DNA of 64,000 bases from Thiorhodococcus fuscus (GTDB lineage Bacteria > Pseudomonadota > Gammaproteobacteria > Chromatiales > Chromatiaceae), in NCBI RefSeq assembly GCF_042682685.1, contig NZ_JBHUHX010000009.1:55805-119804 (forward strand), in the 5' to 3' direction. This document shows, in pieces, positions 14,833-35,144 of this stretch. Numbering within the stretch: the stretch's first letter is position 1; every line of letters starts with the position of its first letter. A program made the position numbers and the translations under genes. Under the pieces are notes generated by a model. It worked only from the letters and a program-made list of their open reading frames with translations. It was not told the origin of the DNA and did not search any database.

Positions 14833-14939
14833 GAAACCCTCAAAACGATCCTAGGCAAGACTGGTAGGCAGGCATCGCTGGTAGGCAGGCATCGTGCGAG
14901 GCATGCTCGCCCCAGTGAGGCTTAGGCGGCGTCTGAGAT

Positions 14940-15300: not shown

Positions 15301-15346
15301 GACGGACAACCATCACAGCCAACAACCTCAAGGAGGAGCCGACCCC

Positions 15347-17176: not shown

Positions 17177-17201
17177 CCATGACCCCCTGATAGAGGGGAC
17201 C

Positions 17202-17651: not shown

Positions 17652-17665
17652 AGAGACAGAAACCC

Positions 17666-17860
17666 ATGAACGATCCAACCCATTCACCCGTCAACGGGAC
17701 CGACACACCACTCGGCTTGCCCGAGAGCTGCCCGTGGGCGGACCAGATCCTCCTCATGCTCGGTCGAATCGAAGGCAAGCTCGACGCCTTTCAGCGCCAC
17801 ATGGCCGTCATGGACCGGAAGCTGGAGAGCGTCTCGACTCAGCGCCAGCAGAAGCACTGA
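17666..17860 (+). CDS. Hypothetical small protein
   Basis: 64 aa. ATG at 17666. Confidence 0.25.
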   Translation: MNDPTHSPVNGTDTPLGLPESCPWADQILLMLGRIEGKLDAFQRHMAVMDRKLESVSTQRQQKH

Positions 17861-18001
17861 GAATGCCTCAGAGCCTCGCTGTACGTCGATCTCAGGGTCT
17901 CTTGTCCTTTCGGTATGACTCACATCACCGAGAGCGGCGGGAGGCTCAGAGAGCCGCACAGAGGGACTTAGGCAGAGACCCAGCAGAACAGGATAAACAC
18001 A

Positions 18002-18262
18002 GTGATCGAATCGACACCATACAAAGCATGTGCCACTGAGACCGGCGAGATGTCATTAGGCGGCATCCGAGTTGTCGTACCAGTGGCTGACCGATTAACG
18101 GACCCAGAGTACATCGTATTTCTTGAGACCCTCACCGTCGTGAGTGACGGACGGAAGATGGTGCGTCAAGTCCGTGAGACTGAGTACGGCGCACAGAATA
18201 TATTCATCGACGCAATGAACACGCTCGTACTGACATACCCAGAAGACGTGGTGACAGTATGA
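18002..18262 (+). CDS. Hypothetical protein
   Basis: 86 aa. Its stop overlaps the next gene's start (ATGA coupling). Confidence 0.3.
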   Translation: MIESTPYKACATETGEMSLGGIRVVVPVADRLTDPEYIVFLETLTVVSDGRKMVRQVRETEYGAQNIFIDAMNTLVLTYPEDVVTV

Positions 18263-18666
18263 GCAGGCAAGTCCACAGGATCGAACATCAAACCATCAGA
18301 GAGCTGGTAAGCGACGCTACAGAGTATAAGCGCCTGCTCAAGGTGTACCGTGCCTTCCGTGCGAAGAAACCAGAAATGCTGGAGACATGGCCCGCTCTAG
18401 TGGATTCGGTCGCCATGACTGTTCAGAGCGAAAAGCTGACAACGGAAGCAGTGGAGAAGTACATACACCACCTATGGCAAGGTGGACGTGCGCCTATCCT
18501 TCCTCACCTGGCCAAGGTATACGGGCTGAAGCGCGGCCAAGCCACACGCCTTGACAGCCTCAGATTCCATGTGGATCTGATGAAGCTGGAAAAGTGGACT
18601 GTCGACTACGAGAAGCTGCTCGAATACGACAGAGCCCTAGAGTACGTCCTGCCCGAATATGAGTAA
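18259..18666 (+). CDS. Hypothetical protein
   Basis: 135 aa. Translationally coupled to the preceding ORF. Confidence 0.35.
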   Translation: MSRQVHRIEHQTIRELVSDATEYKRLLKVYRAFRAKKPEMLETWPALVDSVAMTVQSEKLTTEAVEKYIHHLWQGGRAPILPHLAKVYGLKRGQATRLDSLRFHVDLMKLEKWTVDYEKLLEYDRALEYVLPEYE

Positions 18667-18827
18667 CACTGCCTGACCCCACAGGCCGCACTGCGCGGAT
18701 CCCCTCCGCGACCTCTGAATACTGTGCGTAATCAGCACAGAAACCCAATCGACACAACCCTTTCTCGTTGAGTCCTTCCGCATTGCCACAGGCACTGGCT
18801 TTCTCTTGAGCCGGTTGTGGGTGCTAT

Positions 18828-20846: not shown

Positions 20847-21556
20847 TCAGTTATCCCCCTGGAGACCCCTAAAGGAATACTTTAGAGATGTTGGGGGGGT
20901 ATTCGCATGGCCAAGGACGGCCAGGATCCACCTGATCCAAGCTTGACAAAGAGACTCCACTCCTTCGTCGCTACGTGCGTCGACCACCATCAGCCATCAC
21001 CCTGGACCACCTTCCTCCGGGCTTCGCCCTGATCGACATAACAGAGGATGGAAGGGAAGATCTTCATGGTCCCCTTCCACCTCAGCCGGCCTCAAGCTGC
21101 CTCAAGCCTCTCGGCTCGGAGTCCGATCAAGCTGCCTTCCTCGCTGATCGAGCCGGATCCCTTGGCTGTCCAGCTTTCTATGTCGATCAGTCGAGAGAAT
21201 CCGACTGAGCCAAGGAAGACCGTGGTCCCCTGATCTAGGGGGGCATGGCGCTGCTCTGGGCTTGTTGTCATCCGCTGCCGAGAGGCTTGAGCCCTCGCTG
21301 CGCCTAATCCTGCTGTCCTGGTGGTGCGAAGGTCGGCGGATCTTCTGGCTGTCTCTCTTCTTGTATCTGTGATTTTTCCAGAGGGACAGCTCTAGTCCCT
21401 CCATACCGCCTCCCTCTGCCTGCCTCTCTACCACCGAAGGTCTTCGTCTCCTTCGCTCTTGCACCCCACCCGCTGCCTGTCGGCCTTCGACAGTGACGCC
21501 CTTCGCCTCCCAGACAGCCGATCTGGTCTCCCTCATCCTCACTGGAGACAGACACC

Positions 21557-21751
21557 ATGAACGACATGACCTCTGCCCTTGGAGACGCCCTCGCCACTTG
21601 GGCGAGCGGTCGGCACATCAGCCGTGAGATCCGCAACAGCCTGCTTGAGTCCGGCTACAGCGCCGACGACATCGCAATGATGGAACTCCATCACTTCAAG
21701 CCCGCACACCTCCACCTTTCGCGTACCTCCCAGACTGGAGAGAACCAATGA
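21557..21751 (+). CDS. Hypothetical small protein
   Basis: 64 aa. 4-bp overlap with the downstream Bro-N gene. Confidence 0.3.
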   Translation: MNDMTSALGDALATWASGRHISREIRNSLLESGYSADDIAMMELHHFKPAHLHLSRTSQTGENQ

Positions 21752-22707
21752 CCGCACTGTCCACCTTCACCTTCCCCGTCACTGCAGCCCAGGTCCGTAC
21801 CGTCACTGACGAGAATGGCGATCCATGGTTCGTCGCCAAGGATGTGGCCGATGCCCTTGGGTATGAGAACACGATGGAAGCGGTGCGCTACCACTGCAAA
21901 CGCGCTAAGGCGTTGAATACATTGAAGCAGAGCAAAATGCTCTCCTTGCATCCGCACACGAAGCTCATCCCCGAGGCCGACATCTACCGTCTGGTGATGC
22001 GCTCCAAGCTCCCGTCCGCCGTTGAGTTCGAGGAATGGGTTGTCGAGGAAGTCCTGCCCTCCATCCGCAAGACTGGCAGCTACTCCATGCAGCCTGCTCT
22101 CCCTGACTTCACCGATCCGGCAGCCGCCGCTGAAGCATGGGCGAAGGAGTACCGGGACAAGATGGTCATGATCGACTTCGCCAAGAAGCAGGCAGCCCAG
22201 CTCACCGAGCAGGCCCCGCTGGTGGACTTCGCCGAGGCTGTCGTCGCCGACAGTGAGGACTGCTACATCCGCGATGCAGCCAAGACGGTCGATGTCGCCC
22301 CCTTCCGGCTCTACGAGATCCTCCGTCAGTACAAGTGGATCCCTGAGTCCGATGTCTACCGGATGGTGATGCGTTCCACCCTCTCGGCTGCCTCTCGATC
22401 ACTGAGCTGGTGGGCTCTCGTCACGACAAGGTCAAGCAAAGCATCGAGCGCCTCGCAAACCGTGGTGTTATCACTCAACCTCCAATGGAGGATGCGTCCT
22501 ACAAAGACGGACCCGGCAGCACCATCGTCACCTAGCTCTTCATCTTCTCCGGTGAGCAAGGCCGGCTGGACTCCTTCTCGGTGGTCGCCCAGCGGTTGCC
22601 CACACCGAGCGTCTCACCTGCATGCTGGATATAGACGAAGTTCAAAGCCACCGGTTTGGTGGGTTTGGACCTCGCGGGTCGATGCCGCCGAAGCACAAAA
22701 CCTATAA
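21748..22707 (+). CDS. Bro-N domain phage antirepressor, apparently frameshifted into a Rha-like segment
   Basis: N-terminal Bro-N signature: GDPWFVAKDVADALGY..EADIYRLVMRSKLP.A.EFE.WV...VLPSIRKTGSY. After ~aa 230 the frame becomes low-complexity, while another frame encodes SELVGSRHDKVKQSIERLANRGVI (Rha-family motif). Confidence 0.55.
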   Translation: MTALSTFTFPVTAAQVRTVTDENGDPWFVAKDVADALGYENTMEAVRYHCKRAKALNTLKQSKMLSLHPHTKLIPEADIYRLVMRSKLPSAVEFEEWVVEEVLPSIRKTGSYSMQPALPDFTDPAAAAEAWAKEYRDKMVMIDFAKKQAAQLTEQAPLVDFAEAVVADSEDCYIRDAAKTVDVAPFRLYEILRQYKWIPESDVYRMVMRSTLSAASRSLSWWALVTTRSSKASSASQTVVLSLNLQWRMRPTKTDPAAPSSPSSSSSPVSKAGWTPSRWSPSGCPHRASHLHAGYRRSSKPPVWWVWTSRVDAAEAQNL

Positions 22708-23640
22708 ATCGTCGGTTTTCGGACCTTGTGGCGTAAATTTAATAAACTAATCATAGGCTTACAATGAATCCCTCGGTGAAAGCGAGGCAGCAAATCACCT
22801 CAATGAGGACGAAGCACAAAACCTGCAAATCGCCGGTTCTGGAAATTGTGATGTGAATTTGATAAGTGAATCAGGGCTTTACGGGGCGATCCTTGGTAGC
22901 CACAAGGCGGAAGCCAACCGGGTTCAAGCGCTGTTCAGCAAGGATTTTCACGGCAACTCTCGCGAATCACGAGGGTCGCGGTTGCGTTCGGATACCAAGC
23001 TGAATCCCCGAGGCTGACATCTACCGTCTGGTGATGAAGTCCCGCTTCCCGTCCGCTACGCGGTTTTAGGAGTGGGGTGTCGATCCGTTCGACCCCCTTG
23101 GCGAGCGGGAAAGGGGCCGCATCCGTTGTGACCCCTGGCGCGTGGATAGGGTGGACGGCAAATTTCCTCCCCCTCTGAAAAGACCAAGCGGATAACCTCG
23201 ATTATGGTTCGCCTGACTGGAAGGGGGTTAATCCGATTAACACCCCTGGGGGAAATCAAGAGGTTACGGTGCTCACCGAGCAGGGTCTCTACTTCTTCGT
23301 CGCCCGCTCCGACAAGCCCTGCGCTCGGCCCTTCCAGAAGTGGAAGGGTACGAAACCGATTCGTACCCCTGGTGGAGCCCAGAAGGTGACCAAATCGTTG
23401 GTTCATGGACCCAAGGGTGGAAGGGGGCGAGCCTCGATTCCTGGCGTTGTATGTTGCACTGGTGCCGAGCCACTCCGATGCCCACAACATGACCACCAGG
23501 CTGGACACGGACGAAGTACAAAACCTGCAAATCCCAGGTTTGCTCACTCGCGGCGTGAATTTGATAAGCGAATCATGGCTTTACGAAGCGATCCTTGGTA
23601 GCCACAAGGCGGAAGCCAAGCGGTTCAAGCGCTGGGTCAA
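22690..23640. repeat. Array of degenerate direct repeats made of Bro-N antirepressor gene fragments
   Basis: Three copies of a 70-125 bp unit beginning gaag(c/t)acaaaacct(g/a)(c/t)aaatc.. at about 22690, 22811 and 23512. Copies 2 and 3 are ~90% identical over ~125 bp. Additional Bro-N-like peptides occur at 22990-23050 (ADIYRLVMKSRFPSA) and 23204-23350 (LTEQGLYFFVARSDKPCARPFQKW). Confidence 0.55.
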
Positions 23641-23995
23641 GCGTGAAGTCCTGCCCACCATCCGCAAGACCGGCAGCTATTCGCTCCAGCCTCAACCCCA
23701 GATCCCACAGTCCTTGCCCGAGGCACTCCGTCTCGCCGCCACGCTGGCCGAAGAGAAAGAGCGCCTCGCCCAGGAGAACGCGCAGCTCACCCACATCACG
23801 TCCGTCCAGAACGACATGCTTGAAGCCACTGCCCCCAAGGCTGCCCTTCTCGATCAAGCGTTCGAGGATGACCGCTGGGTTAACGTGACCGACTTCGCCA
23901 GCCGGCTGGAAGGCGTCAACCGCAACAGCCTGACTTCAGTGATCCGGGTTATAGGAGGCGCGGTTGCAGTTAGCTATCAAGCCACTCGTTTGTAA
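23405..23995 (+). pseudogene. Bro-N C-terminal half fused to a KilA-C-like tail (antirepressor remnant)
   Basis: ESWLYEAILGSHKAEAKRFKRWVKREVLPTIRKTGSYSLQ is the distal half of a Bro-N domain without its N-terminal half. Preceded by repeat debris. Confidence 0.45.
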
Positions 23996-25037
23996 CTTCA
24001 CGGTACTTGCCGATGAAGTCCTCACGACCACAAAGCCGAGGTTCTGTCAGCAAATGGTAGGCTCTATTTATGGCCTGCCCGATCTCTTCCCGAGTCAACT
24101 CTGCACAGAACACCGAGAAGAAATCAGATAGATCGACAACAGCAAGATCGAAGCTCAGGTGCTCGATGAAATCTATTAGTTTGGACGCGGGATATAGATC
24201 GCTATCACCCCGGACATCGGAAGCGAATATTACGTATTTTGGCAGATTGCCCCGAACCGCTTTCTTTTGAAAATCACTAAGTCGGTTCTTCCAATCATCC
24301 CTTACCGTTACCTCGAATGCCGCTATTAGCAAGTCCTCTCTGTATTCCTCAATATCTCCAGTTGCCCCATCGAATTTGTCAGATGCATGCGGGTGATGTG
24401 TAATAACTCGATGCCCATATCGCTTTCGATGGACTTCAATGAAGGCGGCAACCAAGAACTGCTGGATGTGACCCTCTGAGGGTACTTTCATCAGCCTTTC
24501 GCAGAGACGAAGACTTCTCGCATACGACAAATAACCCCTTGGTAAAACTGGCAGTGCTTGCGGAATCACCTTGGATTGTTCAAGTCTCCATACAATGTGA
24601 TTGACAAGCGCTTCCCTTTCTGCTGGCTGCAGGCATTCAAGGTTGCTCACGAATGATGCAAAGCGTATATCAGCCGAGAGATCAAACTGGCGCACCGCTC
24701 CCTTCCAGCCTAAATTTTCACCAAATGCCGTTATGCTGTTGTGAAGTGTGACATGCCGTTGAGTCAGCTCCCCTGCGAGTCTCTTATCACCATACTTACC
24801 TCGCGCCCCTACTGGGACGGTCTTAAAATCCCACTCTTCATCAATCAACGAATATGCTGCCAGGAAAGCACAAGCAAGTCTCACGCTTCCGCGCTGCGAT
24901 TCTATATGGCTATCAAATATCGCTTTGACATTTCTAGGCGCAGGCTCTCCAAGAACCTCTCCTTCTGATAGGCGATCAAGCCTATCAAGAATAATATCTA
25001 CAGCCTTCTCTACACTTTCATTTCGTCTTCGTTTCAT
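23970..25037 (-). CDS. Putative Type II restriction endonuclease (partner of the adjacent C5-MTase)
   Basis: 355 aa, markedly low-GC ORF. 4-bp overlap with the methyltransferase gene. No motif assignable by eye. Confidence 0.5.
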   Translation of the reverse strand: MKRRRNESVEKAVDIILDRLDRLSEGEVLGEPAPRNVKAIFDSHIESQRGSVRLACAFLAAYSLIDEEWDFKTVPVGARGKYGDKRLAGELTQRHVTLHNSITAFGENLGWKGAVRQFDLSADIRFASFVSNLECLQPAEREALVNHIVWRLEQSKVIPQALPVLPRGYLSYARSLRLCERLMKVPSEGHIQQFLVAAFIEVHRKRYGHRVITHHPHASDKFDGATGDIEEYREDLLIAAFEVTVRDDWKNRLSDFQKKAVRGNLPKYVIFASDVRGDSDLYPASKLIDFIEHLSFDLAVVDLSDFFSVFCAELTREEIGQAINRAYHLLTEPRLCGREDFIGKYREVTNEWLDS

Positions 25038-26083
25038 AGCGCCAATTCCATTTGATTGAAATCCTCATTTGCAGGCACAAGACCCGAAGGAGATTGAACT
25101 CCATTGGCCTGAGAATACAAAGCCGCGCCTATGGCAAATGCCAGATCAGGTGGAACTGCGTCTCCCACTTGCTTGTACTGAGACGAGCGTTTGCCAGAGA
25201 AAGCCATCTCGCTAGGAAAGGTCTGGATTATGGCGCACTCTTCCACGCTAAGGCGACGAGCACCAGGCACTATACCTTGCCACGGCTCTCCACCAGCGCG
25301 GAGATGAGAGTGGTACTTCGGGGCAATATTTTCCGTATCTATCCAGTGAGTCTTGTATCCGCCCGATGATGCCAGGATTGTGTGGCAGGGTCCGTTGGGA
25401 TCGATAGGGCGTCCACCTCCATTATAGACATGCCCAGCGTATGGACTCGGGCGTAAGTCTGGATACTTAGCGAAACGCACAGGGCAGTTCGGTGCTTCAC
25501 CGATAGGATCCGGGCCAAGCCTACTAGCCGCACTTACGTGCGGTAGCGATGTGTTTTCGCCATGGGTTGGCGTAGGTAGAAGTAAGCGATGTGAGCGGGA
25601 GCCGAGTATAAATAGTCGCCTTCTCTTCTGCGGCACGCCATAATCCGCAGAGTTAATTACAGACCAGTTAATGTGATATCCACATGCAGCCAGCCTTGAA
25701 AGGACTGACTCAAAATACGGGCGAGCCTTCTTGAGTGTAAGACCAGGAACATTTTCCATGAGGAAATACGCTGGCCGAACTTCGTTGAGACATCGGATGA
25801 ACTCTGGAATCATATCCCTTTCGTCCGCATGCCCTTTGCGCAACCCACCGATTGAAAAAGGTTGGCACGGAGGTCCGCCAACGACAATGTCAACTCGGCC
25901 TCGAAATGGCGAGAAGTCAATCTTGCGAACATCTTCGTTGAAGTGGTTTGAGCTGCCATGGTGCAAGGCGTATGTATCCATAGCATCTCGGTTGATCTCG
26001 ACATTTGCCACAATATCGAAACCAGCCCTCTGGATGCCTAAAGAAAGACCGCCTGGCCCTGAGAATAGGTCGATGCCTTTCAC
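25034..26083 (-). CDS. DNA (cytosine-5)-methyltransferase
   Basis: 349 aa. Motif I DLFSGPGG, motif IV GGPPCQPFS, motif VI ENV, motif VIII QKRRRLF. Confidence 0.9.
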   Translation of the reverse strand: MKGIDLFSGPGGLSLGIQRAGFDIVANVEINRDAMDTYALHHGSSNHFNEDVRKIDFSPFRGRVDIVVGGPPCQPFSIGGLRKGHADERDMIPEFIRCLNEVRPAYFLMENVPGLTLKKARPYFESVLSRLAACGYHINWSVINSADYGVPQKRRRLFILGSRSHRLLLPTPTHGENTSLPHVSAASRLGPDPIGEAPNCPVRFAKYPDLRPSPYAGHVYNGGGRPIDPNGPCHTILASSGGYKTHWIDTENIAPKYHSHLRAGGEPWQGIVPGARRLSVEECAIIQTFPSEMAFSGKRSSQYKQVGDAVPPDLAFAIGAALYSQANGVQSPSGLVPANEDFNQMELAL

Positions 26084-26496
26084 TGATATTGGTATCGCTT
26101 CTGGTCGGATAAGCCCCTGCTCTTGCTATCGGATGTGGGAGATCTTTCCGACAACGAGGCAGACAGGGCTAGTAGGGAACTTGCAGCAAAGAGGCTAGGC
26201 AAACCTAGCTTGCTTGACGTAGAGTAAAAGCCGTCCGCCGAGGTGCTGACAACACCCCGACGACAAAGCAAGGCCGCCACTAACGGCTTGCACCGGCTCG
26301 GACATGATACAGCCCCAGGGGTTGGTCTGTCCGCTCAAGGCCCAACTACGCTGATTCCTAGCCAAGTTGCGCCTGGAGTTCCCGTTCCTTCCTCCTGGGA
26401 GAGCCTCTGCCCCTGACGCTGCTGCCTCACCGACAGCGTCGGACTGCCTGTGTGAGCGGTCGATTTCTCAAATCCAACTCTTGGAGAGATCGACCC

Positions 26497-26793
26497 ATGA
26501 AATCCCATGAACAGCTCCTCGCCCCTGGCTCCACCGAGAAGACCGTCGCCACTGCCGACCTGAACATCCGCAGCACGATCAGTCTGGATGTTTACGCCGG
26601 AACCAGATCCTGGATGTGGAAGGTCTACCTCAACAAGGAGGAGCTGACGAGCCAGAGCGGCTACTCCACCCACGCCTTGGCCAGCCAGGCCGGATTGGCG
26701 GAATGGGACCGGATCGTCTCGGCGGTCACCGGCTCGAACATCAAGGCCATCGAAGCCAATGTCGCTGCCGCTGAGAAGGAGCCGTCCGCATGA
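26497..26793 (+). CDS. Hypothetical protein upstream of the replication ATPase
   Basis: 98 aa. ATG at 26497. Its stop overlaps the downstream start (ATGA). Confidence 0.35.
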   Translation: MKSHEQLLAPGSTEKTVATADLNIRSTISLDVYAGTRSWMWKVYLNKEELTSQSGYSTHALASQAGLAEWDRIVSAVTGSNIKAIEANVAAAEKEPSA

Positions 26794-28406
26794 ACCCAAG
26801 CCCCCTCCTTGCTGAGGGGGTGTCCAACACCTCCAGGCACACTTCCGTATCCAACGCTGTTGGAGCCTCAGCATCTAGCGCTGTTGAAGCCTCTGCGCCC
26901 AGCACAGCCGAAGCCCCCGACACTCCGCTGCCGGACTTCACCCCAGTCGCCACCATCCGCCGACCCGATGGTCAAGAGACCCAAGTCGTCCGTGACCGCT
27001 GGGGCAGCCATCTGCTGCACTCTCCCGACAACCCCGGATGGGTCCGGGTCCATCGAGACGGAGCGGGCAACTGGATCGAGCGCGAGACCGGGATCGTCCA
27101 TGCCACCGATGGCAGCGTGATCCACCCCAAAGACATCTTCGGCGCATCATCCGAGGGATTCATCGACGTGAACACCAAGGCAGCCTCGACCATCAAGCCC
27201 GACCCCGTGCGTTGGCTTTGGCCCGGATGGCTCGCGGCCGGGAAGGTCCACCTCCTGGCTGGAGCACCAGGCACAGGGAAGACCACCGTCAGCATGGCTC
27301 TGGCGGCGACGGTCTCGCTTGGAGGCAGATGGCCCGATGGAACCGAAGCCCTCCAAGGTGATGTCCTGATCTGGTCCGGGGAGGACGACATCAAGGACAC
27401 CCTGGTCCCGAGGCTCATGGCTGTGGGGGCTGATCTCAATCGCGTCCACTTCATCACGACCACCAACACCGAGGATGGCCTGAGAGCCTTCGATCCAGCC
27501 GTCGACATCGACCTCCTGGCCGACAAGATGGCCTGGATGGATCCTTGCCCTTCCTTGCTGATCGTCGATCCCATCGTGGCAGCGGTCTCTGGAGACAGTC
27601 ACCGCAACGCCGAGGTCCGGCGAGCCTTGCAGCCCTTGGTTGACCTGGCCGCTTCCCGTCACTGCGCTGTTCTGGGGATCTCCCACTTCAGCAAGGGCAG
27701 CTCGGGACGAGATCCGATTGACCGGGTGACCGGATCGCTGGCCTTCGGTGCCCTGGCGCGGGTGGTCATGGCAACCGCTCGGCTGCCGGACGACCACCCC
27801 AGTGGAGTGAGGCGGATCCTGGCCCGAGCCAAGAGCAACATCGGCGAGGATGGTCAGGGGTTCGGATACGACCTGGAGCTGGAGGAACCGGTCGAGGGAA
27901 TCGAGGCGACCCGAGTCCTCTGGGGCGAGATGCTCGAAGGCAGCGCCAGGGAACTCCTGAGCATGGCCGAGCCGGTCCCTGATGGCGAGGGTGAGAGCAA
28001 CGCCGATGTCGAGTCCTTCGTTCGCGGGCTCCTGGCCGATGGTCCAGTCTCCGCCAAGCAGATGAAGGCCGATGCCGATGGAGCCGGCTACTCCTGGGAT
28101 CGGGTGAAGCGAGCCGCCAGCCGGATCGGAGTGGAGCGGAGGAAGGAGGACTTCAGCAAGGGCTGGGTATGGTCGCTCTCCACGGACCATGACGGTCGAT
28201 CAAGAACGGTCGCTCTGGAGGAGCTGATCCGGGATGCCCTGGCACAGGGAGAACGCACGGCCCAGGAGATGAAGGTCATGATCGAGGAAGCCGGCTATTC
28301 CTGGGATCAAGGCAAGCGAACCGCCGCCAAGCTGGGCATCGAGCGCCAAAAGTCCGGTTACCAGGGACCGTGGACCTGGACGCTGGGAGAGGCTGCCGCC
28401 GCCTAG
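26790..28406 (+). CDS. RepA-like AAA_25/RecA-fold replication ATPase of integrative elements, with two tandem ~57-aa C-terminal repeats
   Basis: 538 aa. WLAAGKVHLLAGAPGTGKTTVSMALAATVSLGGRWPDG (Walker A in AAA_25 context), LLIVDPI (Walker B). The C-terminus has a duplicated module ..GAGYSWDRVKRAASRIGVERRK.. / ..EAGYSWDQGKRTAAKLGIERQK.. Confidence 0.75.
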   Translation: MNPSPLLAEGVSNTSRHTSVSNAVGASASSAVEASAPSTAEAPDTPLPDFTPVATIRRPDGQETQVVRDRWGSHLLHSPDNPGWVRVHRDGAGNWIERETGIVHATDGSVIHPKDIFGASSEGFIDVNTKAASTIKPDPVRWLWPGWLAAGKVHLLAGAPGTGKTTVSMALAATVSLGGRWPDGTEALQGDVLIWSGEDDIKDTLVPRLMAVGADLNRVHFITTTNTEDGLRAFDPAVDIDLLADKMAWMDPCPSLLIVDPIVAAVSGDSHRNAEVRRALQPLVDLAASRHCAVLGISHFSKGSSGRDPIDRVTGSLAFGALARVVMATARLPDDHPSGVRRILARAKSNIGEDGQGFGYDLELEEPVEGIEATRVLWGEMLEGSARELLSMAEPVPDGEGESNADVESFVRGLLADGPVSAKQMKADADGAGYSWDRVKRAASRIGVERRKEDFSKGWVWSLSTDHDGRSRTVALEELIRDALAQGERTAQEMKVMIEEAGYSWDQGKRTAAKLGIERQKSGYQGPWTWTLGEAAAA

Positions 28407-28419
28407 CGGTTAGCCGCCA

Positions 28420-28610
28420 AAGGGAGCGGAAGGGGGCGAAGAAGTGGACTCAAGTCTACGTGCTCCCTTCCGCGCTCTTTGCTCCCTTCTGCACTCTTTG
28501 GCTGCATTCTTCCGCATTCTTTGGCGCGACCACGGCTCAAAGGGAGCAGAAGAGTGCAAGGGAGCAGAAGGGAGCACTGGAATTTGAGTGCATCCTTCGC
28601 CTTCTTCGGT
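28420..28610. repeat. Iteron-like direct repeats inside a long imperfect palindrome (candidate origin/regulatory region downstream of repA)
   Basis: Direct repeats gcactctttgg / gcattctttgg / gcattcttcc, flanked by inverted arms gtgctcccttc..tgctcccttctgcact and agtgcaagggagcagaagggagcac. Confidence 0.35.
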
Positions 28611-29040
28611 GCTCCCTTCGCGTCGATTCATGCGCAGCCGAGGGACTGAGGCGCGTCCGCCGACTGTCCGCGCCGGTGAGAGTGAAGACCTTGGATGTTT
28701 TGCCATAAAAATCTGAAGTGGCACATCTAGAGCGCGGCTTCTGAATTCCCCCCCGTCCCGCCCCTGCATTCCGCCATTCGCCTTCTTTCGTCCCGCCTCT
28801 GGGGTATGCCCCAGTCTCCACCGCAAGCCAGCCGCCAAGCAGACAACCAAGCCTCTCCGGTCCACCGCTCCGGCCATCCACCGAGCCCTCCAAGCCTTGC
28901 CCTACCGGTGAAGCCCCGAGGCTCTGGCACCTTAGCGCTTCCGTCTTCGATGGAGCCTGATACATCGGCACTCTGTCGCCGCTCTTTCCGTTGCCGCAGC
29001 ACCAGCTCATCCGACTGCCAAGGGACGTGATGTGTCCCTT

Positions 29041-29190
29041 CGATGTCGTGTCCAGTGGGTACACCTTCTTGGACACTTCGGCCATGCCCATGGATCAGCG
29101 GGTTATCGTGTCCAACAAAGTTGATATTGCATTATCTTGACACTTGCAAAGATGAGCTTTAGGCTTTTTTGGACACTTCGAGACACGCCC
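29041..29190. promoter_or_regulatory. Candidate res-like site / resolvase operator
   Basis: Several TGTCCA/TGGACA half-site dyads (cgtgtccagtggg, ttggacacttcgg, cgtgtccaacaaa, ttgacacttgcaa, ttggacacttcga) and an AT-rich core directly upstream of the resolvase start. Confidence 0.4.
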
Positions 29191-29211
29191 ACATGAGAGG
29201 AGCGCACAGCC

Positions 29212-29769
29212 ATGTCAGGACAGCAGGTCGGATATATCCGGGTCTCTTCGGTCGATCAGAACAGCGACAGACAGTTGGTCGATGTCGAGCTGGACAAGAC
29301 CTTCACCGAGAAGGCATCGGGCAAGAACACCGCAGGTCGGCCAATCCTGGCTCAGTGCCTGGCATATGTGCGCGAAGGCGACACCATCCACGTCCACAGC
29401 ATCGACAGGCTGGCCCGGAACCTCGCCGAGCTGCAGTCCCTGGTGGACGATCTGGTGAGCTGTGGCGTGTCGGTCCAGTTCCACAAGGAGAACCTGACCT
29501 TCCAGGCTGGAGCGGGTGATCCGATGCAGCGGCTGATGCTGCAAATGATGGGAGCCTTCGCCGAGTTCGAGCGGTCGATGATCCGAGAGCGCCAGCGGGA
29601 AGGGATCGCGGAAGCGAAGCGCCAGGGCAAGCAGATCGGGAGAGCCAGGAAGCTGGACGATGATCAGATTGCAGCGGTCAGGGAACGCATCGCCAAGGGT
29701 GAGAACAAGAAGGCGATTGCTGCCGATCTGGGGATCTCAAGGCAGACGCTGTACAGCGCCTTGGGCTGA
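29212..29769 (+). CDS. Small serine recombinase (resolvase/invertase family) with C-terminal HTH
   Basis: 185 aa. GYIRVSSVDQNSDRQ catalytic serine region, DRLARN, C-terminal HTH ISRQTLYSAL. Confidence 0.9.
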   Translation: MSGQQVGYIRVSSVDQNSDRQLVDVELDKTFTEKASGKNTAGRPILAQCLAYVREGDTIHVHSIDRLARNLAELQSLVDDLVSCGVSVQFHKENLTFQAGAGDPMQRLMLQMMGAFAEFERSMIRERQREGIAEAKRQGKQIGRARKLDDDQIAAVRERIAKGENKKAIAADLGISRQTLYSALG

Positions 29770-30979
29770 ACACCCGAGAGACACTACGACCTAGATCAAT
29801 TATTTTGGGGTCTATTGTTAATGATGTGTTCAGCGTATGCACCACCTCGACCAGATCGCTCTGGTTCGCCATGACGGCGTCGATGTCCTTATAGGCGGCG
29901 GGGATCTCGTCGATGACCCCCTTGTCCTTGCGGCACTCGACGCCCTGGGTCTGGACCTCCAGATCCTTGCGGGTGAAGCGCCGGGTCGCCTCGCCACGAC
30001 TCATACGCCGACCCGCTCCGTGCGAACAGGAACAGAATGACATGGGGTTCCCCAGTCCGCGCACGATGTAGGACTTGGCGCCCATGCTCCCCGGGATGAT
30101 GCCCAGATCGCCCTCGCGCGCCCGGATGGCACCCTTGCGGGTCAGATAGACCTCCTTGCCGAAATGCTGCTCGCGCGTCACGTAGTTGTGGTGACAGTTG
30201 ATCGCCTCCGAGGTCGCCTCGAACGGCGGCAGCTGTCCGCGCAGCGCCTCGATGATGAGCCGCATCATCTGACGACGGTTCTCCATCGCATAGTCCTGGG
30301 CCCAGCCGACCGCCTCGACATAGTCGTCGAAGTGCTGGCTGCCCTCGGGCAGATAGGCCAGGTTGTGATCGGGAAGCTGGATCTTCCAGCGCTCCATCTC
30401 GCGCTTAGCCAGCTCGATGAAATGCATCCCGATCCGATTGCCGATCCCGCGCGATCCCGAGTGGAGCATGATCCAGACCTGCTGGGACTCGTCGAGACAG
30501 AGTTCGATGAAATGGTTTCCGCCACCCAGCGAGCCGAGCTGACTCTTCCAGCGCGCATTGACCTTGGGATGCTTGGCCAGGATCGGCTCGAGACCGGGCG
30601 CCACCCGGGCGAGCCCCTCCTCGCACCAGTGCTCCTGACCGTGTCCGTCCATCCCGACCGGCACCCTGGCCTCGATCGCCGAACGCACCCGGGCCAGCGA
30701 GTCCGGCAGCTGGTCCGCGCGCAGCGAGAGCCGCAGGGCGTTCATGCCGCAACCGATGTCGACGCCCACGGCTGCCGGGATGATGGCCCCGACTGTCGGG
30801 ATCACCGAGCCGATGGTCGCGCCCATCCCCCAGTGCACGTCCGGCATCGCCGCCACGTGCGAATGGATGAAGGGCAGATGGGAGACGTTTTCGAGCTGCT
30901 TCATGGCGTTCTCGGCCACGTCGTCCGTATAGATCTTGACCGGAACCCGGCCCTTGCTGATGACTCGCTTGATAGGCAT
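29678..30979 (-). CDS. rtcB: RNA-splicing ligase RtcB, native C-terminus replaced by the element junction
   Basis: Hallmark motifs GGGNHFIE, HSGSRG, CHHNY, SHGAGR. The native frame runs 30979 down to ~29834 (..DLVEVVHTL) and then reads 50 unrelated codons antisense to the resolvase gene instead of the canonical ..KQVLTVKG end. Confidence 0.85.
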   Translation of the reverse strand: MPIKRVISKGRVPVKIYTDDVAENAMKQLENVSHLPFIHSHVAAMPDVHWGMGATIGSVIPTVGAIIPAAVGVDIGCGMNALRLSLRADQLPDSLARVRSAIEARVPVGMDGHGQEHWCEEGLARVAPGLEPILAKHPKVNARWKSQLGSLGGGNHFIELCLDESQQVWIMLHSGSRGIGNRIGMHFIELAKREMERWKIQLPDHNLAYLPEGSQHFDDYVEAVGWAQDYAMENRRQMMRLIIEALRGQLPPFEATSEAINCHHNYVTREQHFGKEVYLTRKGAIRAREGDLGIIPGSMGAKSYIVRGLGNPMSFCSCSHGAGRRMSRGEATRRFTRKDLEVQTQGVECRKDKGVIDEIPAAYKDIDAVMANQSDLVEVVHTLNTSLTIDPKIIDLGRSVSRVFSPRRCTASALRSPDRQQSPSCSHPWRCVP

Positions 30980-31004
30980 GGTCTTCTCCGTCGATGAAGC
31001 TGGG

Positions 31005-31095
31005 TTCACCGAATCGAACCGCAAAAGCGCAAAGGGCGCGAAGCCGGAATATCAAAGCTCTTTGCGTTCTTCGCGCCTTTGCGGTTCAAACTGTC
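31005..31095. repeat. MITE/REP-like hairpin element, copy 1 (in the rtcB upstream region)
   Basis: Inverted arms gaaccgcaaaagcgcaaagggcgcgaag / cttcgcgcctttgcggttc. Related to the copy at 33661-33795. Confidence 0.5.
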
Positions 31096-31391
31096 TTATC
31101 CGTATTCCCGCGACCTCGCACTCGGTCCGATTCGACCGGATCGCGTCCGTGGAAGGCGTCGATGCCGTCCTCGATGGCCTGGCGATGGCCGGCGCGGATG
31201 CTGGAGGCGGATCGCACGTGCGGACCGCCCTTGCGCAACAGTGGCGATCGGGCCACCGGGTTTCTCCGTTTGTTCATCTCGATTCGTCCTTTCATGAAGG
31301 GCCGCCGTCCATGGCGGCATTCCGTTTCATCCTGACCAGCGCGACCTATCCCGCATTCGCTGGAAGCTGACCGCTGGAGGCTGGCCGCTCA

Positions 31392-32609
31392 TCACCCCTT
31401 GGGCGCCTCGATCCGGACCAGTCCCTGCAGCAGCGATTCCATGCCGCCGAAGACGGTCAGGCTGCCGACCCGCTCGGTGACGCGTTCGAGCGCCTCCAGT
31501 TCCTTGAGCCGCAGCAGCACCGGGTTCTGGTCCATCAGCTTGGCGGTGTTGAGCAGCGACCGGGTCGCGGCCGTCTCCTCGCGCCGACGGATGAGGTTGG
31601 CCTGAGCCGCCTTCTCCGCCTCCACCACCTGGTTGAGGATCTGCTTCATGTCGCCCGGCAGGATGACGTCCTTGATCCCCAATGATTCGATCGTGATCCC
31701 ATGCGGGTCGGCCCGCTCGCGAATGGCGACCAGCACCTCCTGTTCGGTCGTGCCCTTCCGCTCCAGGAGTTCATCCAGGGTCCGGTCTGAGATGGCCCGG
31801 CGCAGTCCGAACTGAAGCTCCCGGTACAGGAAGTCCTTGTGCTTGGGCAACCCGGCCCGAAGCCGGACCGGATCCATGACCCGATACTGGGCGCTCAGGT
31901 TGATCCGCAGACTTACCTTGTCGCGGGTCAGAATCTCCTGGCCCTGGACCTCGATCTCCTGCAGACGCAGATCCGTCAGCTCCACCTGAACATTGCGATC
32001 GAAGTTCCAGAAGGCGTGCACACCCGGCTCTAGGATCCCGACCAGCCGGCCATCGAGCAACAACAGACCCGTCTCATGGTCGGCGATCTCCTCCTCGATG
32101 ATGTCGTCCAGGAACTCGGCACCCGGCAGCTTGCTGCCGGCCGACCGTGCCTTGGCCCGATACTCGGCCGGGGCCCTGGTCCAGCCATCCCGATGACGCA
32201 TCCGGCGGATGCGATCCATCACCTCGGGCCCCACGGCGACACCCTCTGTCAGATCGATTCGCTCGACCCGCACCTCGACCGGCCCCTTCCAGTAGAAGCG
32301 ACGGCTCATGGGCGGAATCAGGCGGGTCAGCTGTCCGTCCAGATAGACGAGCCCGGCCTCATGCTCGCCGGTCTCGACCGTTTCGACCCACAGATTCCAG
32401 AGCGTTGAGGACTCCTTGCGGAACACCTCGGCATGCGGATGGGCCAGTTCCGGATCGGTCAGATCGAAGGTCTCGAACTCCAGCGATCCGACGATATCCA
32501 GCCAGCGATAGACGCCAGGTCCGAGCACCTGCTCCAGCACTCCATTCTTCAGTACCAGCACACGCTCGTGCTGGGCGACGACCTGTCGCTTGTATCCCAT
32601 GATGTTCAT
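31392..32609 (-). CDS. SPFH/band-7 (slipin-like) family protein
   Basis: 405 aa. The C-terminal half carries the SPFH signature (ITIESLGIKDVILPGDMKQILNQVVEAEKAAQANLIRRREETAA). Co-oriented immediately upstream of rtcB. Confidence 0.75.
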   Translation of the reverse strand: MNIMGYKRQVVAQHERVLVLKNGVLEQVLGPGVYRWLDIVGSLEFETFDLTDPELAHPHAEVFRKESSTLWNLWVETVETGEHEAGLVYLDGQLTRLIPPMSRRFYWKGPVEVRVERIDLTEGVAVGPEVMDRIRRMRHRDGWTRAPAEYRAKARSAGSKLPGAEFLDDIIEEEIADHETGLLLLDGRLVGILEPGVHAFWNFDRNVQVELTDLRLQEIEVQGQEILTRDKVSLRINLSAQYRVMDPVRLRAGLPKHKDFLYRELQFGLRRAISDRTLDELLERKGTTEQEVLVAIRERADPHGITIESLGIKDVILPGDMKQILNQVVEAEKAAQANLIRRREETAATRSLLNTAKLMDQNPVLLRLKELEALERVTERVGSLTVFGGMESLLQGLVRIEAPKG

Positions 32610-33137
32610 CTTCCCGCTCTCCTCTGTGCCGTCGCTGTCGGCGGCATGACCAGCCGTTTCGGCCTGCCCGCCGCCCCGATCAAGAATCCGGCATTGCTGT
32701 ATGTCCCGTTGTCGTTGGTCGGTTGGTGGAGCCGGAGTCGGGTCGCCAACGTTCGGCCCGATCCCGGCGTTCTATCGATTCGGTGTCCGGCTCGGACCGG
32801 ACATCGTTCGGAGCCGGCCGCTCGAAACCGCCGGCTGAAAGAAGGAAAGGCTCGCCCCGCGTCGCGCCGATGGGCCAGGACAGCTGCATGGCCGGAATCG
32901 TTCAGCTCGATCGATCCGCATCCCTGCGGCACCGCCCGCCATCCGGCGAGATCGCCCGAAACCGCACGATGTCTATCCATGCGTCGTATCCTGGCTCGAG
33001 ATCGCCACGACGCCCCCGATCCGGCCTCCCTGCCGGCCCGCCATTCGGCGCGCATATCCATCTGATCGGGCCGGGGCTCACCCTGTGGTCTTGATTGGAC
33101 AGGTCATCCAATCGAGTGCGACGGTCAGTCGCCAAAG

Positions 33138-33210
33138 AGACAGCGGCGGGATTCGAACCCGCGCCGGACTGGTTATCGGCCAGTTGCTCTACCCACTGAG
33201 CTACGTTGTC
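33138..33210 (-). tRNA. tRNA-like element, Ile(GAU)-like anticodon, noncanonical (C at position 33, A-C mismatch at 5:68). Possible pseudo-tRNA or tRNA-mimic ncRNA.
   Basis: Folds into a 73-nt cloverleaf: acceptor GACAACG/CGCUGUC, D-arm GCUC-AGUGGGUA-GAGC, anticodon arm ACUGG-CCGAUAA-CCAGU, T-arm GCGGG-UUCGAAU-CCCGC with GGTTCGAATCC. No CCA encoded. Confidence 0.5.
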
Positions 33211-33357
33211 GCCTCACGGCCGCCAGGCAATGGGTACGGACCGAGGGAACGCACTGGGCGCCCTGGCCCGCCACCGGGGCATACCGAACCCCAGGCGCTG
33301 ATCGCTCGACGATCGCCGCAAGATGGTGATGCCTGAAATCCTCGATCTTCAGGCATG

Positions 33358-33391
33358 AAAAAACCCCGACCAGTGCTCCCGGTCGGGGTTT
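33358..33391 (-). terminator. Rho-independent terminator (strong on the minus strand, weak on plus)
   Basis: Stem ccccgacc/ggtcgggg with a 9-nt loop. The minus-strand transcript is followed by UUUUUU, the plus-strand one only by UUU. Confidence 0.5.
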
Positions 33392-33660
33392 CGTATCCCA
33401 CCGGAAGGCCCTCCAATCGAGCCTTCCGAGATTGCAATCGCGAAATGACTCAGCGCAGAGACAGGGTACTCAGCGTCCGCCCCAGCAAGGAGCCGTGCTT
33501 CCCTCGTTGATCCATGTCGTCTCTGAATGTCATCTGAACTCTATTCCTCGCGATTCATTGATGCGTTGATTCGATGGGCGGTTAGTCTAGCCAGAAATTC
33601 AAGCAAGTCAACGAAAATATCAAGATTCTTGTAAAATCCATGTAAAGCGCCCATCAGACC

Positions 33661-33795
33661 GAAGCAATCGAACCGCAAAGGCGCAAAGATCACGAAGAAA
33701 AACAATCGGCTCTGCATATGTCGCGTTTCTCTCGATCCGAATGCATCGAACATATCGCATAGAGGTTCTTTGCGTCCTTTGCGTCTTTGCGGTTC
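33661..33795. repeat. MITE/REP-like hairpin element, copy 2 (upstream of the XRE regulator gene)
   Basis: gaaccgcaaaggcgcaaagatcacgaag ... ttctttgcgtcctttgcgtctttgcggttcc. Shares terminal sequences with the copy at 31005-31095. Confidence 0.5.
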
Positions 33796-33834
33796 CAAAT
33801 TCCCGTATCAGGAACAGGATCCAAACCACCCACC

Positions 33835-34425
33835 ATGCAATCAGCCAACATCCCTGGCCGTATCAAGCTCGCCCGCAAGATGGCGGGGTTTCGCACCCAG
33901 GCCAGTCTTCTCGCCCGGATATCTGGATGGAAATCCTCTCGTCTCGGCAACTACGAGGCCGGCATCTCCACGCCCAGCGCGGACGACATGCTGCTGATCG
34001 CCGAGGCGACCGGCGTATCGGCCTGCTGGCTGATGTTCGGACAGGGACCCATCCGGCCCAATGAGCGCGACCTGCAGGCGGTTCGTCATCAGAACCTGGC
34101 GCACGTACTGGATGGAATCGAAGGGGATCGGGAGCGTCTCGAGGAGACGGTGAAAGGGCTGCGGATCTCGCGCAAGCGGCTCAGGGAACATCTGGACAAT
34201 CCCTTCCTGCCGATCACGGACGAGTTGGCGCGACGTCTGGAACGTCTGCTCGGCACTCAGCCGGGCTGGGTCGACGAGCAGCATGTGGAGCGCGACCCGC
34301 TGTTCCTCTCGTTTCCCGAGGAGATGCGGGAACTGATGATGATCTATTCGGAGCTGCCGGCCGCCCAGCGGCCGGTGCTGATGGCGACGGTCCGAGCCTT
34401 GAGGGATTCGCTTCAGACCGTCTGA
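33835..34425 (+). CDS. XRE-family (Cro/C1-type HTH) transcriptional regulator with C-terminal domain
   Basis: N-terminal HTH IKLARKMAGFRTQASLLARISGWKSSRLGNYEAG. Start taken at the internal ATG 33835 (MQSANIPG). Confidence 0.6.
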   Translation: MQSANIPGRIKLARKMAGFRTQASLLARISGWKSSRLGNYEAGISTPSADDMLLIAEATGVSACWLMFGQGPIRPNERDLQAVRHQNLAHVLDGIEGDRERLEETVKGLRISRKRLREHLDNPFLPITDELARRLERLLGTQPGWVDEQHVERDPLFLSFPEEMRELMMIYSELPAAQRPVLMATVRALRDSLQTV

Positions 34426-34478
34426 GGGAATACCGATCGACGCACTGGCATGGATCGGCTCAGAAGAAGGCGCGTGCC

Positions 34479-35144
34479 TCAATCCAAATCCGGCGTATAC
34501 CCCGAGGCGACATAGATGGCGCGCTCCGCGACGTTGGTCGCACGATCCGCGACGCGCTCGTAGTTGTGCACGATCCACAGCAGATAGGTGCCGGTGGTTG
34601 CGAACGAGGCATCGGAGCGCATTCGGCTCAGCATCTGCTCGATGAAGGCGTCTTCCTCCCGGTCGACCTGCTCCTCCATGGAGACGGCCTCGCGAATGGC
34701 CGCCTCGTTCTCGTTGGAGGTAAAGGCGGACAAGGTGCCGGCCAGCATGCCGATCGCGTCGCTCGCGAGCTGGACAATGGCGGCCACGGGCTCGGGTGGA
34801 AGCGGGGTCTTTCCGTTTTTCAGGATGATGCGTGCCACGTCAGCCGCATAGTCGCCGATACGCTCCAGCTCCGAAACCAGCTCCATGCAGGCGCCGACGG
34901 CGCGGAGGTCTTCGCCGGCGGGCTTATAGGCGGCGAGCGTCACCAGACAGTCCTGCTCCAACATACGACGGTGCCGATTGATGGCGGCATCCTCGGCGAC
35001 GATGCGCTCGGCGAGTTCGAGGTCCTGGCGCTTGATGCAATCGACCGAGCGGTTCAGGGCCTCGATAACCAGAGCACCCAGCTCCCCTACCGCAGACTGC
35101 AAATGCTGGCGCCTCTTCTGCACAAGACTCAGGTTATCGGTCAT
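34479..35144 (-). CDS. PhoU-family protein (stand-alone, not in a pst operon)
   Basis: Two PhoU repeats (..ERIGDYAADVARII.. and ..YERVADRATNVAERAIYV..). Start possibly at the upstream ATG 35183. Confidence 0.7.
   Translation of the reverse strand: MTDNLSLVQKRRQHLQSAVGELGALVIEALNRSVDCIKRQDLELAERIVAEDAAINRHRRMLEQDCLVTLAAYKPAGEDLRAVGACMELVSELERIGDYAADVARIILKNGKTPLPPEPVAAIVQLASDAIGMLAGTLSAFTSNENEAAIREAVSMEEQVDREEDAFIEQMLSRMRSDASFATTGTYLLWIVHNYERVADRATNVAERAIYVASGYTPDLD

Follow-up and report, generated by a model that had tools for sequence, protein, structure and literature searches.

Here we describe a transfer RNA (tRNA) gene with the anticodon GAU and the genes among which it lies in a 64-kb stretch of Thiorhodococcus fuscus DNA (hereafter the window, to which all coordinates without a locus label refer). 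The tRNA gene occupies positions 33138..33210 of the minus strand, in a 1,225-nt gap between the start of an SPFH gene (32609), found 528 nt downstream, and the start of a divergent helix-turn-helix (HTH) gene (33835). On the same strand follow the slipin/SPFH protein itself (405 aa; 31392..32609, minus strand; Band_7, Pfam PF01145, 2e-28), a small basic open reading frame (ORF) of 63 aa (31086..31277, minus strand) and the RNA ligase RtcB (29678..31024, minus strand; Pfam PF01139, 1e-130; phrog_1075, 3e-145), while the divergent gene encodes an XRE/CI-type HTH repressor of 196 aa (33835..34425, plus strand; Pfam HTH_3; PHROG transcriptional repressors). A first-pass annotation of the window had placed a lone tRNA-like element about 500 bp from an SPFH-rtcB operon in some 1.2 kb of noncoding DNA; the position and the length of the gap are as it described, but the gap is not wholly noncoding, since a probable 27-codon leader ORF lies within it.

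A tRNA Fold with Unusual Features

ARAGORN calls a tRNA-Ile(gat) on the minus strand at 33137-33210, the single tRNA that it finds in the 64 kb, and the Rfam tRNA model RF00005 matches 33138-33210 over its complete length (model positions 1-71) with 64.7 bits and E=8.9e-12, where the gathering score is 29. This is also the sole Rfam match across the window, which holds no rRNA. The complete cloverleaf with D arm, T arm and GAU anticodon, as first annotated, is thus well supported. With positions numbered from the cmscan alignment and the sequence, the acceptor stem reads GACAACG/CGCUGUC with A5·C68 as its single mismatch, the D arm GCUC-AGUGGGUA-GAGC, and the anticodon stem ACUGG/CCAGU, which closes the loop C32-C33-G34-A35-U36-A37-A38 (CCGAUAA). 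The variable loop is CCGGC and the T arm GCGGG-UUCGAAU-CCCGC; the discriminator is U73 and CCA is not encoded, the 3′ flank being CUUUGG. Both anomalies named in the first-pass annotation, C at position 33 and the A-C pair at 5:68, are therefore present, and C33 is real because the cmscan alignment fixes the numbering. That annotation was prepared to see its candidate dissolve into an ordinary tRNA if a covariance model scored it well and the anomalies proved mis-indexed; the good score was indeed obtained, but the mis-indexing was not found.

The gene accordingly departs from the near-universal U33 and from the fully paired acceptor of tRNAs, and it has the GAU, A37 and A38 of a housekeeping tRNA-Ile(GAU). 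In 1994 Nureki et al. are said to have placed G34-A35-U36-A37-A38 and U12:A23 among the identity elements of isoleucyl-tRNA synthetase (IleRS), and the Escherichia coli IleRS identity set includes A73, C4:G69, C29:G41 and U12:A23. Measured against the latter, the T. fuscus gene has U73, A4:U69 and U29:A41, and only U12:A23 and the anticodon-loop elements are present. In sum, positions 33138-33210 constitute a genuine tRNA-fold gene that is probably not the usual housekeeping tRNA-Ile.

Linkage to Slipin and Covariation among Orthologs

Orthologous loci were fetched through the slipin protein, which makes their sampling independent of the tRNA, and seven independent loci were compared. All seven carry a tRNA on the same strand ~0.45-0.55 kb upstream of slipin: T. 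fuscus (33138-33210), T. drewsii (L135 4360-4432), T. minor (L136 9406-9479), the metagenome-assembled genome GCA_028277465.1 (L139 1322-1395), Thiorhodovibrio winogradskyi (L138 9445-9518), a metagenome group (L141-L148, 5526-5599) and a Competibacter-like group (L149-L158) whose slipin is 52% identical. Slipin is in turn followed by RtcB in five of the seven. The tie to the RtcB locus, originally proposed from adjacency in one genome, thus recurs as tRNA-slipin linkage at every slipin locus in the sample.

The ortholog tRNAs have a common backbone that comprises the acceptor GACAAC.., the D stem, ACUGG/CCAGU, GCGGG/CCCGC and the 5′ and 3′ flanks. In the seven-sequence alignment 97.3% of cloverleaf cells are paired and two-sided changes occur in 9 of the 21 pairs, a level of covariation that none of 500 shuffles reached and that compares with at most two pairs in slid controls. 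The T loop and D stem are nearly invariant and the flanking intergenic DNA aligns poorly. Together, the compensatory changes and the degree of pairing indicate that the tRNA fold is under selection and that the gene is not a decaying pseudogene. In the Competibacter-like locus (L149 1092-1130), downstream of the tRNA come a hairpin and a perfect T-arm-like stem-loop, GCGG-TTCGACT-CCGC, in that order. Such a possible tRNA-arm relic (GCGGTTCGACTCCGC after this tRNA) may derive from a second tRNA, which would fit reduction from an array.

Anticodon Drift

On this common backbone the anticodon varies: GAU occurs in three of the seven orthologs, CAU in two, and UUG and GCU in one each. T. fuscus and T. 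drewsii have the loop CCGAUAA with GAU and C33, and L139 has UUGAUAA with GAU and U33. T. minor has UUUUGGA with UUG; Thiorhodovibrio (L138) has CUGCUAA with GCU; the L141 group has CUCAUCA with CAU and a pyrimidine (C) at position 37; and the L149 group has CUCAUAA with CAU. The GCU version is not of the serine type, because its variable loop is normal and short. Six of the seven anticodon-loop positions are variable, against two of seven in the T loop.

The remaining irregularities are distributed unevenly. A5·C68 is found in three species (T. fuscus, T. drewsii and L139), and T. drewsii has both it and C33 exactly as in T. fuscus. In T. minor the 5:68 pair is formed, but there is an A2·C71 mismatch, and the acceptor stems of L138, L141 and L149 are fully paired. 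U73 is present in five of seven orthologs, and CCA is absent from six, being encoded in L149 only. The conserved anticodon expected of a housekeeping tRNA-Ile(GAU) is therefore missing from the family and, as far as sequence comparison can tell, the behavior of the anticodon is not that of a housekeeping decoder. The earlier view of the element as something other than an ordinary decoding tRNA-Ile accords with this combination of a drifting anticodon and a preserved cloverleaf, together with U73, C33 and the lack of CCA in T. fuscus.

A Candidate Attenuator Upstream of the tRNA

Upstream of the tRNA, the minus strand carries a conserved leader. A consensus scan places a σ70-type promoter, TTGACT-N16-TAGACT, at 33584..33611, and TTGAC(A/T)...TA(G/A)ACT is kept in all seven orthologs. 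Just upstream of the -35 element, at 33621..33631, the near-palindrome CAAGAATCTTG forms a conserved block in the Chromatiaceae intergenic alignment and is a candidate operator for the divergent HTH repressor. Downstream of the promoter, and preceded by GAGGA as its predicted ribosome-binding site, a putatively translated leader ORF of 27 codons and TGA (MTFRDDMDQRGKHGSLLGRTLSTLSLR) spans 33450..33533 on the minus strand. ORFs of 27-37 codons lie at the equivalent position in all seven orthologs, four of them of exactly 27 codons, and all stop at TGA. No consistent pattern relates the leader-ORF codons to the tRNA anticodon in the seven orthologs. In T. fuscus the frame after the leader TGA (33450-33452) meets no stop across the two structures described next until a TAG within the tRNA, a hint that an attenuator could be sensing stop-codon read-through or release factor 2 activity.

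Two structures follow on the same strand. Hairpin 1 (CGGAAGGCC...GGCCUUCCG; 33402..33428) is supported by folding and by RNAalifold with compensatory pairs, and the CGGAAGG hairpin is present in the leaders of all seven orthologs. The second structure, at 33358..33392, is an intrinsic terminator whose 12-bp G+C stem precedes a run of U6, with 147 nt separating it from the tRNA downstream. It escaped the built-in terminator scan, its 9-nt loop in the simplest reading of the stem exceeding the loop limit of 8, and folding shows it. The fold yields -50.4 kcal/mol (z=-4.9). Both structures persist across seven species, where 8 of 22 pairs show compensatory change, and the distance from the U-run to the tRNA start is 142-186 nt across the seven loci. 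An alternative pairing between the 3′ strand of hairpin 1 and the 5′ strand of the terminator reaches -12.7 to -14.3 kcal/mol in five orthologs, with one compensatory change, in L139.

Closer to the tRNA, the block GTCCGTACCCA(T/C)TGC (33226-33240, minus strand), 16-30 nt upstream of the tRNA 5′ end, is almost invariant in all orthologs, and a second near-invariant block, CAGCGCCTGGGGTTC.GTATGCCCCGGTGGCGG, lies ~100 nt upstream of the tRNA. Neither fits a σ70 or a σ54 promoter. A σ54 promoter in the conserved CCGTACCCATTGC block was considered and rejected on sequence grounds, the spacing not being GG-N10-GC, and pairing of the same block with the D loop was discarded in view of the absence of covariation in L138 and L141.

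The 528 nt between tRNA and slipin contain conserved blocks and two hairpins on the minus strand. Hairpin A (GGCGAC-loop-GUCGC; 33118..33133) begins 4 nt past the tRNA 3′ end; its stem GGCGA/UCGCC is found in most of six aligned orthologs and is degenerate in L139, and its loop is variable. Hairpin B (GAUUGG-loop-CCAAUC; 33093..33113) keeps its stem with both sides changed in T. minor, L139, L138 and L141. The terminator scan found no terminator-like site in this interval. An ORF at 32606-33061 (minus strand), with an ATGA overlap with the SPFH start, was rejected as a gene, its product being Arg/Ala-rich and matching no family.

On the other side of the leader, between the HTH gene and the operon promoter, T. 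fuscus carries an insert of ~130 nt (33670..33795) bounded by 30-nt inverted repeats (33670-33699/33766-33795; 83% complementary). It looks like a small element of the miniature inverted-repeat transposable element (MITE) or repetitive extragenic palindromic (REP) type, is absent from every other aligned ortholog and lies outside the conserved unit. Of the MITE-like hairpins that had been said to bracket the tRNA, this inverted repeat is thus retained, but the others are the terminator and conserved leader hairpins.

Related tRNA Arrays and the Distribution of C33

Scanning metagenomes with a degenerate pattern of the 33138-33210 tRNA gave five loci (L130-L134), in each of which an Ile(GAU)-type tRNA with U33 lies at the end of or beside an array of 4-15 genes. 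In the four whose flank is long enough, a slipin homolog comes next; an HNH gene is also present in L130 and RtcB in L132. The Ile(GAU)-type tRNA is the slipin-proximal gene in L004, L011 and L130-L132, and homologs of RtcB and slipin flank the arrays in L003, L012, L013, L130 and L132. Under the L-array criteria, taken from Santamaria-Gomez et al. 2021, the window with its one tRNA does not hold a long array, related cassettes having 4-20 tRNAs. Its neighborhood agrees with the criterion that asks for rtcB, HNH and translation-related genes and for homology to array loci, in that RtcB and slipin homologs flank the arrays named above. For the third trait, silence in normal growth and induction by translational stress, the window offers a predicted repressor, operator and attenuator. 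In L131 (8867-8970) and L132 (1380-1490) the slipin-proximal Ile(GAU)-like tRNA has a hairpin between its T arm and a distal 3′ acceptor strand. The sequence TCGGCAG pairs with CTGCCGA ~25 nt further on in L131, and CATTGCA pairs with TGCAATG past a GCGCA..TGCGC hairpin in L132; the Rfam tRNA model match is limited to 6-65 or 3-68 for these two.

C33 itself has an uneven distribution. A scan of 185,579 species genomes found GAU tRNAs with C32-C33 at only 18 loci, 12 of them in tRNA arrays, and slipin and/or RtcB stand beside five (L003, L004, L011, L012 and L013), which we count among the RtcB-array-slipin cassettes. In the viral contigs of IMG/VR, within one framework, 33 loci have C33 and 74 have U33, C33 being found in 23 of 82 distinct sequences. 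These counts show that C33 in tRNA-Ile(GAU) is rare in cells and common in phage and array tRNAs. The U33 of L139 implies that C33 was acquired independently in the Thiorhodococcus lineage. We found no mention in the literature of the frequency of C33 in viral or array tRNA-Ile(GAU); phage and plasmid collections returned generic tRNA similarity only, with no close homolog of the tRNA region.

Genes of the Putative Operon and Their Surroundings

The slipin is identical (100%) to a T. fuscus 'slipin family protein' and shares 96% identity with its T. drewsii AZ1 counterpart. It has roughly 8,000 homologs on record, and its orthologs across the compared species are only 52-80% identical; viral contigs contained no slipin relatives. 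Exact-protein look-ups of the window's HTH and SPFH proteins and of P0002 and P0128 gave no record. The small basic ORF has an invariant motif, NPVARSPLLRKGGPH, and orthologs of 58-63 aa in the slipin-rtcB gap (L135 6289-6480; L136 11369-11548; L141 7339-7515); in L139 it was not called. It matches no Pfam or NCBIfam family, and assignment as an ArfA-like protein was dropped when both stayed empty even at E<=1. Its 37 database relatives are all 'hypothetical', several of them on contigs that also hold slipin homologs. The HTH protein resembles the phage CI/DicA/RstR repressors (PHROG; NCBIfam DicA/RstR-like), and its gene adjoins the cassette also in L135, L136, L139 and L141.

The order HTH-[~1 kb]-slipin-small ORF-RtcB is common to T. 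drewsii, T. minor, L139 and the L141 group. In T. drewsii, T. minor and L139 the cassette leads into SPOR-argS, and T. drewsii has mdh ahead of SPOR. For the neighboring PhoU protein, identity is 94% with a JGI metagenome protein and 69-79% with its counterparts in named Chromatiaceae (Thiocystis, Allochromatium). Beyond the HTH gene, on the side away from the cassette, lies an insertion hotspot, with a Y1 (REP-associated) transposase in a closely related strain (L019 10784-11620) and a tyrosine integrase in T. drewsii (L135 2118-3023).

On the rtcB side lies a strain-specific island of 16.6 kb (13230-29828) that is absent from T. drewsii: by blastn, L135 3930-7737 corresponds to window 33637-29829 and L135 7735-16177 to window 13229-4782, the junctions sharing a 3-nt overlap. 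One junction falls within the 3′ end of rtcB and the other next to mdh; neither touches the tRNA. Homology to T. drewsii rtcB stops at 29829, ~8 codons before the end of that gene, and the insertion thus gives T. fuscus RtcB a foreign tail of ~50 codons (ORF to 29678). The island encodes a large serine recombinase (13282-14832), a type II restriction endonuclease (23970-25037), a C5 methylase (25034-26083), an AAA_25 primase-helicase (26790-28406) and a resolvase (29212-29769), as well as Bro-N/Ant proteins and a DEAD helicase. A single prophage-like island from 13.2 to 34.4 kb that would include the tRNA was considered, the related metagenome strain L019 losing homology at 34399, and was rejected: T. 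drewsii and T. minor keep HTH-tRNA-slipin-RtcB, and the island ends at 29828.

Discussion

In light of the results presented here we lean, with restrained confidence, toward regarding the gene at 33138-33210 as the last surviving tRNA of an accessory tRNA-array/RtcB/slipin cassette, set in the regulated leader of a tRNA-slipin-small protein-RtcB operon. Slipin and rtcB probably share a transcript with the tRNA, controlled by an attenuator that would respond to translation stress. The transcript would start at the σ70 promoter, overlapped by the candidate palindromic operator of the divergent XRE-type repressor, and would run in order through the 27-codon leader ORF, hairpin 1 and the strong intrinsic terminator. 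In unstressed cells hairpin 1 and the terminator would both form, and transcription would end 147 nt before the tRNA. Under stress, abnormal ribosomes on the leader (stalling or reading through as tRNAs are damaged or depleted, or in response to translation inhibitors) would be followed by pairing of the 3′ strand of hairpin 1 with the 5′ strand of the terminator, and RNA polymerase would continue through the tRNA, slipin, the small basic protein and RtcB. Excision of the tRNA by RNase P and a 3′ endonuclease would part the attenuator from the mRNA, with CCA added later. The released RNA might, if charged, act as a spare tRNA(Ile-GAU)-type molecule or else as a decoy, and RtcB would reseal tRNAs cut in their anticodon loops.

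Several points count against this proposal. Co-transcription, attenuation and processing are all predictions, the sample consists of seven orthologous loci only, and the canonical rrn-spacer tRNA-Ile(GAU) of T. fuscus is one that we assume from general knowledge of the Gammaproteobacteria. The leader ORF stops ~21 nt before hairpin 1, so that a ribosome just terminating there would not melt the hairpin. The attenuator hairpin motif was not found before the array-type cassettes, which makes the regulatory link to the arrays one of gene content only. Finally, three orthologs keep GAU and two have CAU, which could be an Ile2 or a Met anticodon. Decoding of Ile codons may therefore persist in some members of the family, and the differences in anticodon could reflect genuine changes of isoacceptor in place of relaxed constraint.

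The alternative that survives best, which we judge unlikely yet deserving of serious weight, is a tRNA-shaped module that never enters the ribosome, serving either as a site of RNase P/Z processing or stabilization or as a nuclease decoy or sensor that RtcB rejoins. Four anticodons on an otherwise kept backbone would be expected of such a module, as would an anticodon loop so much more variable than the T loop, with noncanonical residues such as C33 in T. fuscus and C37 in L141. The presence of U73, the missing CCA and the weakened or interrupted acceptor stems of the slipin-proximal array copies point the same way, and the anticodons themselves appear ill matched to their synthetases: the GCU version lacks the long variable arm and is unusable by SerRS, and the UUG version lacks the acceptor features of GlnRS. 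On the other hand, all orthologs strictly preserve the anticodon stem and a 7-nt loop with A38, features for which a pure RNase P/Z signal would have no need, GAU recurs in three species and CAU in two, and the nucleotides of the tertiary interactions are those of a working tRNA. A bolder version, more tentative still and rather doubtful, would make these genes a class of non-decoding tRNA-shaped RNAs that are obligatory in an RNA-repair/translation-stress operon. Their diversifying anticodon loop would be bait or sensor for anticodon-loop nucleases, the cut 2′,3′-cyclic-phosphate/5′-OH ends would be resealed by the co-encoded RtcB, and recurrent selection for nuclease evasion would account for C33 in phage and array tRNA-Ile(GAU).

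That the gene is an ordinary host tRNA-Ile(GAU), next to SPFH-rtcB by chance and with anomalies that are tolerated polymorphisms, we consider improbable. It would explain the high covariance score and intact cloverleaf, the agreement of G34-A35-U36-A37-A38 and U12:A23 with the known IleRS identity elements, and the fact that C33 and A5·C68 are unchanged in T. drewsii. It is difficult to reconcile with an ortholog gene that has UUG, GCU or CAU in related species, with the absence of A73, C4:G69 and C29:G41, with a CCA that is not encoded here and usually is in gammaproteobacterial housekeeping tRNAs, and with the strong terminator that precedes the gene; beyond universal positions, moreover, it has little in common with the gammaproteobacterial rrn-spacer tRNA-Ile type (compare L002). 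Less probable again is a decaying pseudogene, the functionless final remnant of a lost array. A lone survivor where relatives carry arrays, with C33, an acceptor mismatch, a drifting anticodon and possible tRNA-arm relics beside it (as in L149), has the appearance of one, but helices would have broken under neutral decay. Instead, nine pairs show double changes and 97% of cells remain paired across loci whose slipins are as little as 52-80% identical, and the T loop and D stem stay near-invariant amid poorly alignable flanks.

Two suggestions of the first-pass annotation found no support. A YrlA-type Y-RNA mimic that tethers a Ro/Rsr protein has in its favor the tRNA-like shape and the adjacent rtcB, and is scarcely credible given a complete 73-nt cloverleaf with a normal anticodon arm, no Y-RNA or YrlA covariance match at E<=10 in 32000-34500, flanks that in all seven orthologs do not pair across the acceptor end and so offer neither the anticipated acceptor extension nor a Ro-binding stem, and no TROVE/Ro among the scanned window ORFs or the Pfam lists of L135, L136, L138, L139, L141 and L149 (+/-5-10 kb). 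The idea of an attachment-site relic, either the 3′ remnant or the target of a tRNA-directed integrative element, draws on the nearby mobile DNA (the 16.6-kb island, the integrase by the T. drewsii cassette and the Y1 transposase of the related strain) and is just as implausible, for the gene is full length, no second copy or repeat of its 3′ end and no partial tRNA copy or direct repeat bounding mobile DNA was found in the 64-kb window, the island junctions are in rtcB and by mdh, and the tRNA stands at the same place in species without the island.

The closest known parallel to the accessory cassette that we favor is found in cyanobacteria. The 26-gene tRNA array of Anabaena PCC 7120 stays silent until translation inhibitors induce it, and in other cyanobacteria rtcB and HNH endonuclease genes neighbor such arrays and are co-induced (PMC8421152). 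Translational stress induces the Anabaena array together with rtcB, a slipin gene and an HNH gene (PMC8421152, PMC10272220). The Anabaena TrcR protein represses the array, rtcB (all3526), slipin (alr0740) and HNH genes including all8564, and a role of array tRNAs as sponges for toxin RNases has been suggested by the Anabaena authors (PMC8421152, PMC10272220). The cassette family to which the T. fuscus locus belongs resembles this regulon in that supernumerary, horizontally spread tRNAs are tied to RtcB, a slipin-family protein and an HNH endonuclease, with silencing by a repressor that is predicted in T. fuscus, and its array-type relatives L003, L013, L130 and L132 join RtcB, array and slipin, with HNH in L130. 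It differs in having one tRNA in one compact unit and not a dispersed regulon, in an XRE-type HTH repressor where TrcR is a ribbon-helix-helix protein, and in its predicted leader-ORF/terminator attenuator and anticodon drift, and its induction by stress is putative. By analogy, the locus looks like a compact proteobacterial version of the Anabaena-type system, reduced to one tRNA.

Other systems bear on parts of this picture. Toxins have been reported that cut tRNA-Ile(GAU) between C32 and U33 and leave 2′,3′-cyclic-phosphate/5′-OH ends (PMC11724271), which are the ends that RtcB joins, and the HepS nuclease cuts tRNA-Ile(GAU) and tRNA-Ser(GCU) (PMC13043305). The Salmonella rsr-yrlBA-rtcBA operon encodes YrlA/Y RNAs (PMC4201824; bioRxiv 10.1101/312249) and likewise sets a tRNA-shaped RNA beside RtcB in an RNA-repair operon; in YrlA, however, a Ro-binding stem replaces the free acceptor end and there is no normal anticodon arm, and YrlA needs Rsr and is under RtcR/σ54 control, none of which applies here. 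Phage tRNAs with altered anticodon loops evade anticodon nucleases (PMC10264068, PMC11555353, PMC11464382). Like them, the T. fuscus gene is an extra tRNA with an anticodon loop unlike the host type and is linked to conflict or repair functions, but it is chromosomal and vertically conserved within the genus, and nuclease resistance of C32-C33 is only putative. In the E. coli thrU-tyrU-glyT-thrT-tufB operon, tRNAs precede a protein gene on a single transcript, from which RNase P and 3′ processing free them. These are housekeeping tRNAs with fixed anticodons and no attenuator, whereas in T. fuscus a terminator precedes the tRNA and the anticodon varies between species. We found no description in the literature of a single tRNA-slipin-RtcB arrangement with a leader attenuator.

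Bacterial RtcB has no well-defined natural substrate or trigger outside the enterobacterial RtcR system. The locus presented here places one tRNA, a cytosolic-looking slipin, a conserved small basic protein and RtcB behind a predicted leader-ORF attenuator, in a compact unit that is kept from purple sulfur bacteria of the Chromatiaceae to Competibacter-like bacteria and is related to the RtcB-tRNA-array-slipin cassettes of several phyla, and it offers a model for how 'cryptic' accessory tRNAs and RNA repair might be switched on jointly by translational trouble. One backbone with four anticodons is in addition a natural experiment on whether such tRNAs decode. To judge by how often viral and array tRNA-Ile(GAU) carry C33, the near-universal U33 may be dispensable, or selected against, in settings of conflict.

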